From NCBI GenBank assembly GCA_049651785.1, contig JBASCT010000025.1:5563-69562 (forward strand): 64,000 nt of DNA, read 5' to 3'. This DNA is from Minisyncoccia bacterium. Its GTDB lineage: Bacteria > Patescibacteriota > Minisyncoccia > Phycocordibacterales > Zambryskibacteraceae. The notes under the pieces were generated by a model, which searched no databases, was not told where the DNA came from, and was given only the letters and a program-made list of their open reading frames with translations. This document shows, in pieces, positions 3,310 to 44,871 of the stretch (position 1 is the stretch's first letter; each line of letters starts with the position of its first letter). A program made the translations under genes and the position numbers.

Positions 3310-3732
3310 TTATTTCCAAAGACTCAAGATGATTCCCATCACTATAAGAGATACAAGGTAGTGTGAGGCGTTGATATACCAGAGTTTCCAAGGTTTGTTC
3401 TCCCATAAAACCACGCCGAGACTAACGGGGGCGACAAAGCCGAGCCACATCCAAAAACCAGACGATGCGCCAGAAGTCCAGCCGGAAGAGTTCATATAGG
3501 ATGTTGCGAAGACCAAAACGTGCGAGAGGACGTATGCCATGACAAGAGAAGCGACAAATTGTATTGCGTAGGCTTTATTCGCAGCCATCTTCATTCCAGA
3601 CATAACCTCTGGAGCGTAGCCCATCATCGCCATCCACGGTTTTTTAAACAAAAGACCGTACCAGAGAAACCCCACCGCCATACTAGAGACGGCCGCCACA
3701 AGCACCGCCCAGTAATTTATGCCGATGTCCAT
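3310..3732 (-). CDS. Small integral membrane protein, DUF1761-like
   Basis: MDIGINYWAVLVAAVSSMAVGFLWYGLLFKKPW matches the DUF1761 pattern as I recall it. Confidence 0.5.
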   Translation of the reverse strand: MDIGINYWAVLVAAVSSMAVGFLWYGLLFKKPWMAMMGYAPEVMSGMKMAANKAYAIQFVASLVMAYVLSHVLVFATSYMNSSGWTSGASSGFWMWLGFVAPVSLGVVLWENKPWKLWYINASHYLVSLIVMGIILSLWK

Positions 3733-3778
3733 ATTGTTTGATTAATGTCTAAATTCCCATTATTATTCTAGCACCCAT

Positions 3779-3855
3779 TCCGCGATACCCGCCCGAACGT
3801 ACCGTTCGGTACGGGCGGGGCTCAGTCCCGAAGGGAAGCCTTCGGCTTTGGTAGA
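3779..3855 (+). repeat. Pseudo-copy of the tRNA-Asn 5' half, interrupted by a 32-nt GC-rich palindrome and a second hairpin
   Basis: TCCGCGATA, then the palindrome at 3788-3819, then GCTCAGT, then the CCGAAGG-GAAG-CCTTCGG hairpin, then TTGGTAGA. The non-inserted bases equal tRNA-Asn positions 1-24. Confidence 0.7.
3788..3819. repeat. GC-rich palindromic element, family copy 1
   Basis: CCCGCCCGAACGTACCGTTCGGTACGGGCGGG, 32 nt, near-perfect hairpin. Confidence 0.8.
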
Positions 3856-3882
3856 AAAAGTGTTATCGCGGAATTGAATAAT

Positions 3883-3955
3883 TCCGCGATAGCTCAGTTG
3901 GTAGAGCGCCTCCCTGTTAAGGAGGATGTCCCAGGTTCGAGCCCTGGTCGCGGAG
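3883..3955 (+). tRNA. tRNA-Asn(GUU)
   Basis: Cloverleaf with acceptor TCCGCGA/TCGCGGA, anticodon loop CTGTTAA, T-loop TTCGAGC. CCA is not encoded. Confidence 0.9.
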
Positions 3956-4026
3956 CAAGGTTATTTGCCTACGCCTAGGGCATTGTGCTAGTGTCTTGGC
4001 GGGTTAATTCTTTAGAAAGGAGACGC

Positions 4027-30388: not shown

Positions 30389-33300
30389 TGTTTTGGGAGT
30401 TATCTGGCTTCCCGCCCGAACGACCGAAATCATTCGGTCGGGCGGGCTTCTTCAAATCGACATCAAGGGAAAGGCCGCGCAAGTTGTTCAAAAGGACGTT
30501 GAAAGAAGCCGGCAGGTGCGGATCGGGAATTTTTTCACCCTTAACTATGGCGTCGAAGGCGGCCGAGCGGCCGATGATGTCGTCAGATTTAATCGTGAGC
30601 ATTTCGCGGAGGGTGTGGCTTACGCCGTGACCCAAAAGCGCCCAGACTTCCATCTCGCCGAAGCGCTGACCGCCGTTCTGCGCCTTGCCGCCCAAGGGCT
30701 GCTGGGTGATGAGAGAATACGGTCCGATAGAGCGCATGTGGATTTTGTCCTCGACCATGTGGTGAAGTTTGAGGACATACATGTAACCGACGGCAATATC
30801 TTGTTCGAACTCTTCTCCGGTGCGACCGTCAAAGAGTTTCACCTTGCCGTTTTTCTTAAAGCCGGCCTTGGTGAGCTCCTCCTGTATTTCTTCTTCCGAG
30901 GCGCCGGCGAAGGGCGGCACGATGGCCTGATAGTTGAGCGTGTGGGCGGCGAGACCCAAATGCATTTCAAGAATTTGCCCGAGATTCATACGTGAAGGCA
31001 CGCCGAGAGGTGTCAGGATAATATCGATCGGCGTGCCGTCCGCCATGTAAGGCATTTCCTCAACCGGCAGAATTTTTGAAATGACTCCTTTGTTGCCGTG
31101 GCGTCCCGCGAGCTTGTCGCCTACGGAAACATTGCGGAGCTGGGCCACCTGAATATGAATTTGTTTCAAAATGCCCGACTCAAGTTTGTCCCCCTTCTCA
31201 CGGCTGAAGATTTGAACCGAGATAACGCGGCCGCGCTTACCCCCTTCCATGCGCTTTGAAGTATCTTTGACATCGCGCGCTTTCTCGCCGAAAAGCGAGC
31301 GAAGCAGGCGCTCCTCTGGGGTAAGTTGCGACTCGCCCTTCGGCGTAATCTTGCCGACAAGAATATCGCCGGGGCGCACCTCGGCGCCGACGCGGATAAT
31401 GCCGTCCTCGGCCAGATTTTTAAGCTTTGACTCTCCGACATTCGGGATGTCACAGGTAGTCATCTCCGGGCCGAGTTTCGTATCGCGGACATTGACCGTG
31501 AATTCTTCGACGTGAATCGAAGTAAATTTGCTCTTCTCGACCAGGCGCTCGGAAATGATGATGGCGTCTTCGTAATTGGCACCCGACCAGGACATGAAGG
31601 CGACAAGAGCATTTTGTCCCACGGCCATCTGTCCGCCGGCGGAAGATGAGGTGTCGGCGAGGACCTTGCCCTTCTTAACCTTTTGTCCGACTTCAACCGA
31701 GGGTCTCTGGTGGAAGGTCGTGAAGCCGTTCGTCATTGAAAAATTGACCAAAGGAAACTTGTGCGTATTGCCCTTGTTATCCTTGACCTGAATCATCTTG
31801 CCGTCGACATACGAGACTGCGCCGTCAACGGTCGAGACGACCATACGTCCGGTGTCGCGAATAGCCGCCTCCTCGATACCTGTGGCGACAAGCGGCACTT
31901 CGGGCACGATGCAGGGTGTTGCCTGTTTCTGCATGTTCGAACCCATGAGCGCGCGGTTGGCGTCGTCGTGGTTGAGGAAGGGAATCATCGAGGTGGCGAC
32001 GGAAAAAGCCTGATTTGTAGCCACATCCATAAACTGTACCTCTCCCTTAGGGATGAGCTGGGGTCTACCACCAAGGCGAACCTCGACCATGTCGGAGACA
32101 ATCTTGTCCTCCTCCATCACCGTGGCGGCATGGGAGATACTCGAATTTTCTTCCTCCAAGGCGTTCAGGAATTTTATTTCGCCCGTAATTTTTCCGTCCT
32201 TAACTACAGCGTAAGGGGTCTCTATCATGCCGAAGTCGTTGATTCTCGCGTAGCAAGAAAGGCGCAAAATAAGACCGATGTTCGGACCTTCGGGGGTCTG
32301 AATCGGACAGAGTCTGCCGTAGTGCGAAGGATGAACGTCGCGGACTTCGTACCCGGCGCGCGCGCGGTTGAGACCGCCGGGACCGAGAGCCGAGACGGTG
32401 CGCAGATGCTCAAGCTCGGCGAGCGTATTTTCCTGCTGGGCAAATTGGGACAATTGGTTCGTGGTGAAAAATTCTTTGATTCTTGCCTGCAGGGGTTTGG
32501 GCGAGATAAAGTGGACCGGCAGCGTAACGTCGGTGTCGATTGTCGACATTCTGTTCTGGATATTGCGCTTAATCTGCGCCATACCTACGCGGATTTTCTG
32601 TTGGAAAAGCTCACCCACGAGGCGCACCCTCCTTGAGCCGAGGTGGTCTATGTCGTCGGGTTGGGCATCGGGCACTGCGTTCAGGCGCGCCATGTGCGAG
32701 ATAATCGTGACGAAATCGGCAAGCGAGAGCGTGCGGCGATCAATCTCCTTGGCGGAATCCTTGCCGCCGAAACGATTGTTGAATCGGAAGCGTCCGACGC
32801 GGGAGAGATCGTAGCGGTCTTTGCTGAAAATGGAGAGCACGAATTCACGGGCATTGTCGGCCGCGGCGAGATCTCCATCGCGAAGTCGCTTGTGTATCTC
32901 GATTGCTGCCTCGTCGACGGTCGTCGTGTGGTCCTTGGCCAGAGTTTTTTCTAGGTGGCGCTTGGTTTCGGGAACGTTTTCGAACAGAGCAAGAATCTTT
33001 TCATTCGAGATGACGTGGTTTGTGTTGCCCGCCATAAGGAACCGCAAGAGCGTTGTAACCGGGAATTTTCTTTTTCGGTCGATTCTGACGTAGAGAGTGC
33101 CGTCGAGATCGGTCTCAAGCTCGATCCAAGCGCCGCGACCGGGGATGATTTTGGCGCCAAAAGTCTTTTTGCCCCTGAGTTCCTGAGTGGTGAAAGAAAT
33201 ACCGGTTGAGCGGGCAAGCTGAGGAACAATCACCCGCTCAATGCCGGAGATGATGAAGGTGCCGTGGGAAGTCATGAGAGGAAAGTCGGCCATGAAGATT

Positions 33301-36182: not shown

Positions 36183-36279
36183 GTGCTCCCCGCCCGTACC
36201 GAACGTCCGCCCGGACGAATACCCATTCGGACGGGTATTCGGTACGTTCGGGCGGGTACCAACTGAGCTAAGGTGGCGC
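36183..36279 (-). repeat. Pseudo-copy of a tRNA 5' half with a 68-nt composite GC-rich palindrome inserted between D-arm positions 21 and 22
   Basis: On the minus strand: GCGCCACCTTAGCTCAGTTGGTA, then the insert at 36189-36256, then GAGCACTAA, then directly tRNA-Thr(CGU). The D-arm is identical to that of the tRNA-Thr(GGU) gene. Confidence 0.65.
36189..36256. repeat. GC-rich palindromic element, composite copy
   Basis: CCCGCCCGAACGTACCG...CGGTACGGGCGGG with an inner TCCGCCCGGACGAATACCC/GGGTATTCG hairpin. Confidence 0.75.
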
Positions 36280-37310: not shown

Positions 37311-37566
37311 AGCCAAGATCGGGGATCGAACCCGAGACCTCATCCTTCGCTTACACCTCTTTTTCTTTTTATAAGAGGGCTAGACTGTATCTTCCACTCA
37401 CCGGCTAAGGTGAGTAGCTCTTGTCAGTCGTTCGGGCGCTTAGCGCCACGGTCTGAACCTGTTAGGGCCTTTAACCGTTATTCGAGATTCACTCAAAAAT
37501 TACTTTCTAAGTGGGCAGGATTAGCGATCCACCATGGATGTGCTCTACCAACTGAGCTATCTTGGC
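37311..37566 (-). tRNA. tRNA-Thr(GGU) split by a 183-nt intervening sequence between nucleotides 36 and 37
   Basis: Exon 1 is GCCAAGATAGCTCAGTTGGTAGAGCACATCCATGGT. Exon 2 is AAGGATGAGGTCTCGGGTTCGATCCCCGATCTTGGCT. Joined, they give a canonical Thr(GGU) cloverleaf. Confidence 0.7.
37348..37530 (-). other. Intervening sequence, candidate group I-type self-splicing intron
   Basis: The 5' exon ends in U and the intron ends in G. R-like GGTTCAGACC and S-like AAGATACAGTCTAG elements are present. Contains GCGCCCGAACGACTG, which is shared with the palindromic repeat family. Confidence 0.5.
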
Positions 37567-37590: not shown

Positions 37591-38184
37591 TTACAATGAG
37601 GGAAAGTTTTCAATCAGACTATCAAACATTTTTTTAAGTTTAGTGTTATTAAAATAAACAGTTAAAACGCCATATTGATTTTTATTCCTATAACTTCCTG
37701 TCCCGCGAGACGGTGTAATTATAATCTTCTGAAATTGTGATTTTCTTACGCCAAGCTTATTCATCCAAAATCTCTGAGCTGCCACAGGAGAAATGTCAGA
37801 AAATATTTGGAGTCCAAATTTTAACTTATCTTTATCTATTCCATATATTTTATTTAAAAACGTCATATAGGCCATTATGAGTCTCGGATCAACATTGCCT
37901 AATCTTATTGAGTTTTTGTTTCTTTTGTTCCCTTCTCCCCAGAATAAGCCTATACCTAGCCCAAAAAGTTGCCATTCATCCTTAGTTTTTGGTGGTTTGA
38001 AAATAAAGGGATCGCCTTTTGGATTATATCTAAGGTATGTGGCGTCTGATATAGATCTTTTGGGGATTTTGTATTTAGAAATCCAATAATTTATTTTGTT
38101 TTGAGAAACTCCTGTTTTCCTAGCTATTTCTGCAACAGACAACTGTTTTTTTAAATACCATCTCCTTAGCTTACTTTCATTCAT
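37591..38184 (-). CDS. Putative freestanding homing endonuclease (LAGLIDADG-like GLFWGEGN motif) with an N-terminal HTH
   Basis: About 33% GC against about 50% for the genome. HTH LSVAEIARKTGVSQ. Immediately upstream of the intron-containing tRNA. Confidence 0.4.
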   Translation of the reverse strand: MNESKLRRWYLKKQLSVAEIARKTGVSQNKINYWISKYKIPKRSISDATYLRYNPKGDPFIFKPPKTKDEWQLFGLGIGLFWGEGNKRNKNSIRLGNVDPRLIMAYMTFLNKIYGIDKDKLKFGLQIFSDISPVAAQRFWMNKLGVRKSQFQKIIITPSRGTGSYRNKNQYGVLTVYFNNTKLKKMFDSLIENFPSL

Positions 38185-38649: not shown

Positions 38650-38654
38650 TCGAG

Positions 38655-38728
38655 CGCGGCCAACCGGACTTGAACCGGCAACCTCTCCCGTGACAGGGGA
38701 GTGCTCTAACCAGTTGAGCTATGACCGC
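38655..38728 (-). tRNA. tRNA-Asp(GUC)
   Basis: GCGGTCA acceptor, anticodon loop CTGTCAC, T-loop TTCAAGT. Confidence 0.85.
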
Positions 38729-38958
38729 AATTTTAATTTTAGATATCTTCTTCCAGCGGCGCTTTTTAAATACAATTCTCGCTTGCGCGCCACCTCAAAG
38801 GTATCATGTTTTTCGGTATAAACAAGACGAATACCGGACATTTTAGAAGTGGTCAGAGTCTTGCCTCCCCCATGCTCATTAAGACGCCTTGCAAGATTGT
38901 TGGTAAGTCCTTTATATAACTTACCTTTATTGTCCCGTAATACGTAAACGACGTACAT
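38719..38958 (-). CDS. GIY-YIG nuclease family small protein (YhbQ/YazA-like), 79 aa
   Basis: YVVYVLRDNKGKLYKGLTNNLARRLNEH. The 3' end overlaps tRNA-Asp by 10 nt. Confidence 0.7.
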   Translation of the reverse strand: MYVVYVLRDNKGKLYKGLTNNLARRLNEHGGGKTLTTSKMSGIRLVYTEKHDTFEVARKRELYLKSAAGRRYLKLKLRS

Positions 38959-38970
38959 AAATAAGTGCTC

Positions 38971-38998
38971 CCCGCCCGACTGAAGTCGTTCGGGCAGG
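38971..38998. repeat. GC-rich palindromic element copy, CCTGCCCGAACGACTTCAGTCGGGCGGG
   Basis: 28 nt. Shares GCCCGAACGACT with the tRNA intron and with the pilin-leader copy. Confidence 0.75.
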
Positions 38999-39011
38999 TA
39001 ACCAGTTGAGC

Positions 39012-39043
39012 CCCGCCCGTACCGAACGGTACGTTCGGGCGGG
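39012..39043. repeat. GC-rich palindromic element copy, identical to the tRNA-Asn copy
   Basis: CCCGCCCGAACGTACCGTTCGGTACGGGCGGG. Confidence 0.8.
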
Positions 39044-39095
39044 TATGACCGCAGTGCACTACAAAGTACCAGATTTTTTGGGCTTTATCAATTTG

Positions 39096-44305: not shown

Positions 44306-44871
44306 GGCCAGTTTAAAATATTTTCCCGCGCCTGGAACTCTTGGTTTGTAGAGCCGTGCATCCAGTTAATGGTGACCAGAACGGAAATTTCTTTGGCATC
44401 AACTTGAGTGATAATAATTTCGCGTCGAAATTTCGTCTCGCTCCAAGCCCCGTTGTGTCCATAGAAAAGATTGGTGGCGTCCTGACGAAGCAAGGGGCAA
44501 GACTCGATGGCGCTGCAACGCGTCGGCACAGTCGAGTTTATCGGGTCAACAATGCAGGCATTACCGAACCAGCAGGGGTCATTAATGTTTGAGGCAATGC
44601 CCGTAAGCCAGTTCCTGTTATTGAGCGCGTTCTCGTCGCGCATGTTTCGGATAAATTCGAACCCCTCTTGAGCAAGGTAAAATGCGGTTATCTGGTCGCG
44701 TGAAAAAGTGTAGGACGAAATCGCGGTCCTAACAGCGCTTGAAACTCCTGTAATGGCCGTGATGAGAATCACGATAGCGACTAGGCTTTCGACGAGAGAG
44801 AATCCCCGCCCGAACGACTTTCGTCGTTCTGTCGGGCGGGCGTTTTGCTTTGTGTGTGTTTCTTTTGTCAT
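44302..44871 (-). CDS. Pseudopilin (PilV/GspI-like) with an unusually long 29-aa leader containing a palindromic-element insertion
   Basis: ...RRKSFGRG|FSLVESLVAIVILIT. Start placed at the internal Met (MTKETH), ATGA-coupled to the upstream gene. Confidence 0.6.
   Translation of the reverse strand: MTKETHTKQNARPTERRKSFGRGFSLVESLVAIVILITAITGVSSAVRTAISSYTFSRDQITAFYLAQEGFEFIRNMRDENALNNRNWLTGIASNINDPCWFGNACIVDPINSTVPTRCSAIESCPLLRQDATNLFYGHNGAWSETKFRREIIITQVDAKEISVLVTINWMHGSTNQEFQARENILNWP
44805..44840. repeat. GC-rich palindromic element copy, 36 nt, in frame within the prepilin leader coding region
   Basis: CCCGCCCGAACGACTTTCGTCGTTCTGTCGGGCGGG. It encodes ARPTERRKSFGR. Confidence 0.75.

Follow-up and report, generated by a model that had tools for sequence, protein, structure and literature searches.

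An interrupted 5′ copy of tRNA-Asn in a Minisyncoccia genome as the probable scar of a tRNA-invading GIY-YIG nuclease cassette

Results

Positions 3779-3882 of a 64,000-nucleotide (nt) stretch of DNA from a Minisyncoccia bacterium (contig JBASCT010000025.1, positions 5,563 to 69,562; this whole stretch is called the window below) lie directly upstream of tRNA-Asn and probably represent a non-functional copy of the 5′ part of that tRNA, left as the scar, lacking an open reading frame (ORF), of a tRNA-invading GIY-YIG nuclease cassette with mobile hairpins. In its intact form such a cassette would comprise the native promoter, the displaced 5′ part of the tRNA, one or more hairpins at the D-arm borders, the nuclease ORF and a working tRNA whose first bases would encode the last codons and the stop of the ORF. 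What we take to be this intact form is located at tRNA-Asp in the window and at tRNA-Asn in a sister genome. The ORF at the Asp locus, overlooked in the first-pass annotation of this DNA, is in our view the key to the structure.

The copy at the Asn locus, all of which is on the forward strand, can be read as three pieces of tRNA-Asn spread over 3779-3855, bearing out the earlier claim of a 5′ copy split by an inserted repeat. Bases 1-9, TCCGCGATA (3779-3787, direct reading), are followed at 9|10 by a 32-nt insert, CCCGCCCGAACGTACCGTTCGGTACGGGCGGG (3788-3819; P32), which belongs to a family of bulged GC hairpins. Bases 10-16, GCTCAGT (3820-3826), precede a second, 22-nt insert with the hairpin CCGAAGG-GAAG-CCTTCGG (3827-3848), unlike P32 in sequence, and the copy ends with bases 17-23, TGGTAGA (3849-3855), one base short of the extent of 1-24 first claimed. 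Tested as a possible repeat family, the CCGAAGG..CCTTCGG hairpin proved to have a single occurrence in 1.13 Mb. By direct reading, AAAAGTGT lies between TGGTAGA and the left arm of a perfect 12-bp inverted repeat, TATCGCGGAATT / GAAT / AATTCCGCGATA (3864-3891). As annotated, the left arm (3864-3875) is the exact reverse complement of 3880-3891, with a 4-nt loop between them, and the right arm is made up of the 3 last leader bases and tRNA bases 1-9. The intact tRNA-Asn(GTT) is predicted at 3883-3956. The collinear match of the pseudo-half to the tRNA scored 32, against 17 for a reversed-sequence control at the same locus, and 2 of 74 reversed-sequence controls reached the cut-off of 26.

A second exact copy of P32 lies at 39012-39043 on the reverse strand, confirming that the Asn and Asp copies carry an identical 32-mer; these are the two copies in the window, where shuffled sequences gave an expectation of 0. 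Here P32 interrupts a pseudo-tRNA-Asp 5′ part (38965-39052, all on the reverse strand), delimited by chained matching and the 32-mer search. Direct reading gives bases 1-9, GCGGTCATA (39052-39044), then P32 (39043-39012) and bases 10-22, GCTCAACTGGTTA (39011-38999); these are followed by a 28-nt hairpin from the hairpin-family scan, CCTGCCCGAACGACTTCAGTCGGGCGGG (38998-38971), and by GAGCAC (38970-38965), where the pseudo-tRNA ends. The first-pass annotation had described the regions upstream of tRNA-Asn and tRNA-Asp as a single architecture, and this holds: in both, P32 follows base 9 in the same orientation relative to the tRNA. The identity of sequence and position suggests that P32 has spread within the genome.

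Eight nucleotides after GAGCAC begins a 79-amino-acid (aa) GIY-YIG nuclease ORF (38719-38958, reverse strand), which matches Pfam PF01541 with an E-value of 7.5e-13 and 49 bits, against a cut-off of 22.6. Its last codons, ...TTG CGG TCA TAG, correspond to the first ten bases of the intact tRNA-Asp(GTC) predicted at 38654-38728 (reverse strand), so that U8-A9-G10 of the tRNA serve as the stop TAG. Six-frame profile and single-sequence searches of the window found no GIY-YIG ORF other than this one. Residues Y5, Y15, R24/R25, H29 and E61 are invariant across 29 homologous sequences including the window ORF, and this Tyr/Tyr/Arg/His/Glu set is one to which we assign catalytic roles by analogy with I-TevI. 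Proteins of the family are 77-86 aa long, with the GIY-YIG domain spanning the whole length. The closest solved structures are UPF0213 proteins (PDB 1YWL and 1ZG2, E 1.5e-7 and 2.8e-6), and Slx1 is also close. PHROGs gave no match for the window ORF or for the Asn-linked ORF of the sister genome; NCBIfam gave none for the window ORF and a sub-threshold group-I-intron-endonuclease match for the sister ORF (25 bits, cut-off 56). Relatives of the nuclease fall into 1,239 clusters at 50% identity (E < 1e-10).

The sister genome (L081) resembles the window in gene order (S30AE, VanY and two DUF1761 genes), and its homologue of the DUF2103 protein encoded downstream is 86% identical. Its Asn locus reads TCCGCGA, a 39-nt hairpin, TAGCTCAGTTGGT, TGT, ATG, an 80-codon GIY-YIG ORF (Pfam E 2.9e-18) and tRNA-Asn, and the end of the ORF, ...ATT CCG CGA TAG, lies in the tRNA. 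L208, a Kaiserbacteria metagenome-assembled genome, and L209 share this Asn-linked layout and have their hairpin at 7|8, and an ORF-less pseudo-Asn (bases 1-14) lies 31 nt upstream of tRNA-Asn in L082. The ORF is therefore polymorphic at tRNA-Asn, being present in L081, L208 and L209 and absent from the window and L082. The first-pass annotation had made conservation in sister genomes a test of its reading, and the outcome is mixed. The pseudo-half itself does recur, in the four genomes named; P32, the second hairpin and the leader hairpin are all missing from these other Asn pseudo-copies, whose inserts lie at 7|8 or are lacking. The idea that the region is a conserved device acting on the tRNA precursor is thus not borne out. 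As a separate observation, the L209 tRNA-Asn (about 1243-1420) has both the upstream GIY-YIG cassette with its pseudo-half and an intron at 35/36; ARAGORN finds no tRNA there, and the insert resembles the 35/36 group I introns described in PMC13011429.

Since tRNA genes are well-known targets of integration, which duplicates a portion of the tRNA, the copy might instead be a duplicated attachment site that an integrative element of the integrase type, or a prophage, left behind. This we consider hardly credible: the duplicated part is the 5′ end and not the 3′ part, the copies at the Asn locus are just 100 nt apart with no ORF between them, and even the intact form holds merely a 240-nt nuclease ORF between its copies. 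The genes adjoining the Asn locus encode DUF1761 and DUF2103 proteins, with no integrase among the adjoining ORFs and no integrase element between tRNA repeats.

The association of ORF and tRNA was followed in 80 loci retrieved by homologue alignment from species-representative genomes, almost all of Patescibacteria, with homologues of 58-75% identity. A same-strand tRNA starts 226-387 nt after the ORF start in 77 of the 80 loci (226-260 nt in 74 of these), and two of the three loci without an adjoining tRNA end at a contig edge. The stop codon of the ORF coincides with tRNA bases 8-10 in 45 loci, 13-15 in six and 21-23 in another six, while in most others the ORF ends 3-19 nt ahead of the tRNA. 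The tRNAs concerned are those for Asp, Ala, Thr, Val, Phe, Ile, Met, Lys and His, mostly with a common TAGCTCAGTTGGTAGAGC-type D arm. In 74 of 77 loci the 300 nt upstream of the ORF contain fragments of the 5′ end of the same tRNA, so that the end of the gene is present in two copies; by gapped chaining alignment the upstream copies begin at base 1 and reach base 15-44, and in a few loci the ATG of the ORF itself lies within anticodon-arm sequence. GC-hairpin inserts number 55 in the 63 loci with a chain score of at least 28, and lie after base 8-11 (n = 13), after base 13 (n = 3) or after base 20-23, at the D-loop end (n = 38).

The pseudo-acceptor equals the acceptor of the adjacent tRNA in at least 42 of the 77 loci and is different but tRNA-like in at least nine. 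In two loci (L044 and L080) a 3′ acceptor strand matching the pseudo-copy sits downstream of the intact tRNA; because it lies beyond that tRNA, the resident gene is, to judge from this arrangement, split by the ORF together with a complete foreign isoacceptor gene. Polarity is reversed in L011, which has an intact tRNA, the ORF and then a hairpin-bearing copy with a ruined 5′ strand, and in L040 a full-length copy with a hairpin persists next to the intact gene. For 38 of the 77 proteins the nearest neighbour is linked to a tRNA of the same amino-acid type, where 13 would be expected, a partial tracking that indicates faithful inheritance or homing at the site, with repeated switches between tRNA species.

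P32 folds into an 8-bp GC stem and an inner stem with a bulge. It has the inverted structure implied by the earlier term "palindrome" but is not a true palindrome, the reverse complement of the 32-mer being a different sequence. In the family consensus, CCCGCCCG is followed by a bulge of four bases (AACG in 62 of 80), an inner stem of 5 bp that comes in few types (TACCG/CGGTA, ACTGA/TCAGT), a loop and CGGGCGGG. This is a dispersed, multi-copy family of imperfect palindromes, with seven members in the window and 85 candidates in 368 kb of loci plus window. Members occur in both orientations and are nested in the loops of earlier hairpins (window 36189-36256; L004, L044, L052, L060 and L063). 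Exact P32 is also present in Phe, Thr, Ala, Lys, Met and Val pseudo-halves of other genomes and in at least 120 metagenome stretches; there were no matches in viral contigs, and so no sign of a phage origin. At tRNA sites excision of the insert gives back the exact tRNA sequence, so there is no target-site duplication; the repeats that flank P32 at some non-tRNA sites lie in tandem-repeat DNA and are ambiguous. The GIY-YIG ORF directly adjoins P32 in 12-14 of 80 fetched loci; it is the one nuclease observed in association with the hairpins, Y1 transposases not having been searched for. Nested insertions, both orientations, copies outside tRNAs and the metagenome occurrences together indicate mobility, and the hairpin is a dispersed repeat that is mobile by itself, strongly enriched in dead copies of tRNAs and physically tied to the nuclease gene.

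Eleven of 87 P32 copies lie inside open frames of at least 150 codons (L088, L105, L127, L133, L139 and others) and may be in-frame insertions in protein genes, as are known for Rickettsia palindromic elements. P32 was also seen between highly conserved flanks, for example ...GGAGGCACGACTGAGG|P32|GATCTCC..., recurring within a contig (five copies in L116, three in L163) or across samples (L091/L097/L120/L134/L146 and L092/L131/L162), which suggests insertion into repeated or highly conserved genes, possibly those of structured RNAs.

The insert sites are loop-stem borders, as in archaeal non-canonical introns, full-length tRNA copies whose sole insert is a D-loop hairpin exist (L040 and the downstream copy of L061), and Patescibacteria are rich in tRNA introns (PMC13011429). 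The hairpins could accordingly be imagined as removable mini-introns, and the interrupted copies as present or former working or split tRNA genes, but we hold this to be very improbable. The interrupted Asn copy stops at base 23 and lacks bases 24-76, an intact tRNA always adjoins the interrupted copy, and the hairpins occur in both orientations and outside tRNAs. At 32 nt, moreover, the insert is well under the size that a group I intron needs, and Rfam searches over 3700-3970, at gathering and permissive thresholds, returned the downstream tRNA alone, other matches falling far under threshold. A split or permuted tRNA was considered as well, and rejected on anatomy.

A simpler history would be tandem duplication of the tRNA and decay of one copy, the dead copy then being invaded by an unrelated REP-like (repetitive extragenic palindromic) element, with the GIY-YIG gene uninvolved at the Asn locus. 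ORF-less pseudo-halves do lie upstream of about 10-12 of 74 other tRNAs, three of the four pseudo-halves in the window have no ORF, some three quarters of the P32 copies occur outside tRNAs, and TCGCGGA in the leader matches the expected 3′ acceptor strand of a decayed full tRNA copy. We nevertheless judge this history unlikely. The sister genome and two further genomes carry the ORF at precisely this site, ORF and pseudo-half occur together at nearly all census loci (74 of 77), hairpins of the same family accompany the ORF even in Bacteroidota (see below), and the identical P32 occupies the same position in the ORF-bearing Asp locus. TCGCGGA, the 7-nt core of the leader hairpin, may be such an acceptor strand, but this would leave five extra complementary bases unaccounted for.

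The 12-bp leader hairpin had been taken to let the 5′ end of the precursor fold back on the acceptor strand. In a predicted fold of 3856-3956 it forms in place of the acceptor stem, so pairing with tRNA bases 1-9 is possible as proposed, while a conserved role is not upheld. A consensus scan alone identified a promoter-like site, TTGATT-17-TATTAT (3738-3766, forward strand), 12 nt upstream of the pseudo-half and placed where the native tRNA promoter would be; it is the sole such site before tRNA-Asn, and none was found between pseudo-half and tRNA. Co-transcription of the two is thus plausible on sequence grounds, and because the sole site lies upstream of the pseudo-half, tRNA-Asn is probably made with a structured leader of about 105-110 nt that would be removed by ribonuclease P (RNase P).

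These features, with an inverted repeat far beyond chance (z -5.5) and a hairpin that outcompetes the acceptor stem in the predicted fold, are what would be expected of a functional 5′ leader in which pseudo-half, palindrome and anti-acceptor hairpin control RNase P processing or tRNA-Asn maturation. Such a leader is nonetheless quite improbable. P32 and the 12-bp hairpin are missing from the sister and other Asn loci compared, the hairpin being specific to the window Asn locus; inverted tRNA 5′-end copies occur in the leaders of just 4 of 224 tRNAs, two of the four trivial; insert positions and orientations vary among loci; at least nine loci have heterologous pseudo-acceptors; and no Rfam family matches. 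We read the leader hairpin as a local inverted duplication or repair scar and not as a conserved part, although it may have a regulatory side-effect on tRNA processing. A T-box-like leader was also examined as a candidate, and its anatomy led to rejection.

A mirror-image 3′ version was found in a complete Cyclobacteriaceae genome (CP058703.1; L211/L212), where three units of about 324 nt, arranged in tandem downstream of tRNA-Leu(CAA) (5885-6940 of L212), each hold a related ORF. The carried tRNA 3′ end and terminator come first, then the ORF, then the displaced 3′ end with a hairpin: each unit consists of a terminator copy, the ORF and CCGGTTC | CCTGCCCGACTGACATCGGTCAGGCGGG | GATTCCGGCCTTAGGTACA, in which the hairpin-family insert splits the T loop. 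After the last unit comes a terminator that differs and is presumably native, and the start of a fourth ORF is found at a distance of 2.5 kb. Such arrangements are therefore not limited to Patescibacteria, and in both the 5′ and the 3′ version the hairpin sits where a second intact conserved tRNA arm would be.

The two remaining pseudo-halves of the window, both on the reverse strand, have no ORF. A pseudo-tRNA-Thr 5′ part (36183-36277) consists of GCCACCTTAGCTCAGTTGGTA, nested hairpins (36256-36189) and GAGCAC, and ends 3 nt upstream of tRNA-Thr(CGT); its acceptor, GCCACCT, is unlike those of both Thr tRNAs of the window, and it probably originated elsewhere. A pseudo-tRNA-Ser (63285-63347), GGAGA, a 37-nt hairpin (63342-63306) and CGTGGCTGA, lies about 40 nt upstream of tRNA-Ser, with an inverted copy of tRNA-Ser bases 7-16 after CGTGGCTGA, so that the window holds two cases of an inverted tRNA 5′ segment beside an ORF-less pseudo-half. 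Hairpin-family copies in non-tRNA, apparently intergenic contexts were located by family scan and folding at 30411-30446 and 44805-44840 (both forward strand); the latter is followed by a T-rich tract and may be a terminator.

An unannotated tRNA-Thr(GGT), GCCAAGATAGCTCAGTTGGTAGAGCACATCC...GGATGAGGTCTCGGGTTCGATCCCCGATCTTGGCT (37311-37566, reverse strand), was also noticed, with an insert of about 215 nt in its anticodon loop; neither ARAGORN nor Rfam at gathering threshold detects it. The insert matches Intron_gpI weakly (15 bits, E 0.18), agrees with the group I introns that PMC13011429 describes in Patescibacteria tRNAs, and contains the hairpin-family-like sequence GCGCCCGAACGACTGA. Directly upstream of this intron-bearing tRNA lies a 197-aa ORF (37591-38184, reverse strand) with an N-terminal helix-turn-helix (sub-threshold in Pfam) and a motif, LGLGIGLFWGEG, that recalls LAGLIDADG endonucleases; it may encode another mobile endonuclease.

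Discussion

The anatomy of these loci is consistent with a mechanism in which the putative nuclease would break a tRNA gene at a conserved arm, and recombinational repair would copy in the ORF along with either a whole tRNA or a substitute for the tRNA 5′ part, so that the host keeps a working gene. The resident 5′ part would be pushed upstream with its native promoter, and a hairpin would come to divide its redundant D arm, whether on arrival of the cassette or later. The hairpin could mark an end of the element, or be an insertion that is tolerated, or favoured as protection against recutting, in the dead copy only. At the window Asn locus the ORF would have been lost or never co-transferred, leaving the scar. 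The location of the stop codon inside the tRNA invites the speculation that RNase P cleavage of a co-transcript would leave the ORF without a stop and keep nuclease expression low.

Several points weigh against this reading of the Asn locus. Six-frame profile and single-sequence searches found no GIY-YIG ORF remnant at the Asn, Thr or Ser pseudo-halves. The window inserts lie at 9|10 and 16|17 and not at 7|8, so that the scar is not a simple deletion derivative of an L081-type cassette; it may come from a different invasion or have been copied out of the Asp locus. The cleavage, target and mobility of the predicted nuclease are read from the anatomy of the loci. The working tRNA retains an intact D arm, so the model does not explain self-immunity. 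Flanks resembling a tRNA D arm accompany about 20 of 87 P32 copies in the 80 fetched loci and are lacking from the remainder, and with most copies outside tRNAs the hairpins could be unrelated passengers. Finally, proven GIY-YIG homing enzymes carry a DNA-binding domain, whereas no such domain is joined to the catalytic domain here. Since the protein is UPF0213/Slx1-like and consists of the catalytic domain alone, cutting that is specific for structure rather than sequence is a real possibility.

In our classification this is a mobile endonuclease ORF, free-standing and with a carried gene end, to which REP-like palindromes are added. The chance that the nuclease and the hairpin jointly make up a new type of element is substantial, and we tentatively raise, as a possibility short of an even chance, a broader proposal: that the UPF0213/Slx1-like nuclease and the bulged GC hairpin form a previously unrecognised type of mobile element that is directed at tRNA-gene loops, in the D arm for Patescibacteria and in the T arm for Bacteroidota, and carries a replacement tRNA part, through which the host gene would survive. 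In such an element the hairpin would be a terminus, or a plug that makes the redundant copy uncuttable, and solitary hairpins would be non-autonomous derivatives moved in trans by a structure-specific nuclease. No description of an architecture combining a small GIY-YIG ORF, a duplicated tRNA end and a hairpin was found in the full-text literature, a coverage that leaves out most subscription journals.

The consequence for the Asn locus itself is modest, its tRNA-Asn probably just having an unusually long structured leader, and the interest rests more on the family exposed than on this locus. If the proposal is true, tRNA genes of ultra-small bacteria would be a battleground for a compact selfish element that needs about 240 nt of coding sequence and borrows its stop codon from the tRNA. 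It would provide the UPF0213-type GIY-YIG proteins, which are widespread and uncharacterised, with a function and with a substrate open to testing, and would account for the GC hairpins and pseudo-tRNA pieces by which the annotation of these genomes is confused.

Among known systems, the hairpins can be compared with REP sequences and bacterial interspersed mosaic elements, Rickettsia palindromic elements and the GC clusters of yeast mitochondria, which are short GC-rich imperfect palindromes present in many copies. REP-like elements can nest, take both orientations, and insert intergenically and sometimes inside genes. The P32 family shares with them its short GC-rich imperfect palindromes, nesting and occurrence in both orientations. 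It differs in its sequence (CCCGCCCG-AACG-...-CGGGCGGG), in its strong enrichment at the D-arm borders of dead tRNA copies, in the lack of target duplication at tRNA sites and in its link to a GIY-YIG ORF and not to a transposase of the RAYT (REP-associated tyrosine transposase) type.

The nuclease is comparable to the UPF0213 and Slx1-like proteins (PDB 1YWL and 1ZG2) in size and in having the catalytic domain alone; UPF0213 proteins have no established function, and PMC1564403 describes no linkage to tRNAs for them. Group I introns within the tRNA genes that Patescibacteria carry, including those for Asn and Asp, have been surveyed (PMC13011429), without mention of GIY-YIG. They are another selfish tRNA-gene insert in the same phylum and the same tRNAs, and both kinds occur together in L209. 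Such introns, however, split a working gene and are spliced out, whereas here the inserts lie in a dead duplicate and the working gene is whole.

SegB, a free-standing homing endonuclease encoded among the clustered tRNA genes of phages T4 and T6, is a GIY-YIG nuclease whose target is a motif conserved among tRNAs, in the T-arm; it does not spare the tRNA genes of its own genome, and its activity leads to tandem tRNA-segB duplication via short homologies (PMC2330249, PMC13096335). The cassettes described here likewise place a GIY-YIG nuclease gene next to tRNA genes and can form tandem tRNA-nuclease units. SegB is phage-borne and longer, with a 27-bp recognition site; that it extends well past a bare catalytic domain is shown by the 28 aa missing from its C terminus in the amplified repeat (PMC13096335). 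It has neither a pseudo-half with hairpins nor an overlap of ORF and tRNA, and no relationship in sequence was found apart from the GIY-YIG fold.

A parallel in layout is offered by the mobile ORFs (mORFs) of fungal mitochondria, in Allomyces macrogynus atp6 and in Glomus atp6, atp9, cox2 and nad3, which bring a replacement gene end and displace the native one (PMC3630166). The mechanism proposed above draws on the anatomical match to these mORFs and to SegB. In both systems a free-standing endonuclease ORF, in some mORFs also of the GIY-YIG type, is inserted with a copy of a gene end, the host gene stays intact, and the displaced native end persists as a pseudo-fragment. The two copies of an mORF-bearing gene end may differ in origin, pointing to horizontal transfer, and the same is seen here in the heterologous pseudo-acceptors of at least nine loci and in the split resident tRNAs of L044 and L080. 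The hosts here, however, are bacterial tRNA genes, with the 5′ end duplicated in Patescibacteria and the 3′ end in one Bacteroidota genome; the ORF is about 80 aa, has no DNA-binding domain and ends inside the tRNA, and the displaced copy carries a conserved GC hairpin. Should the proposed element be real, it would be a bacterial chromosomal counterpart to the gene-end duplications driven by SegB and by the mitochondrial mORF nucleases.

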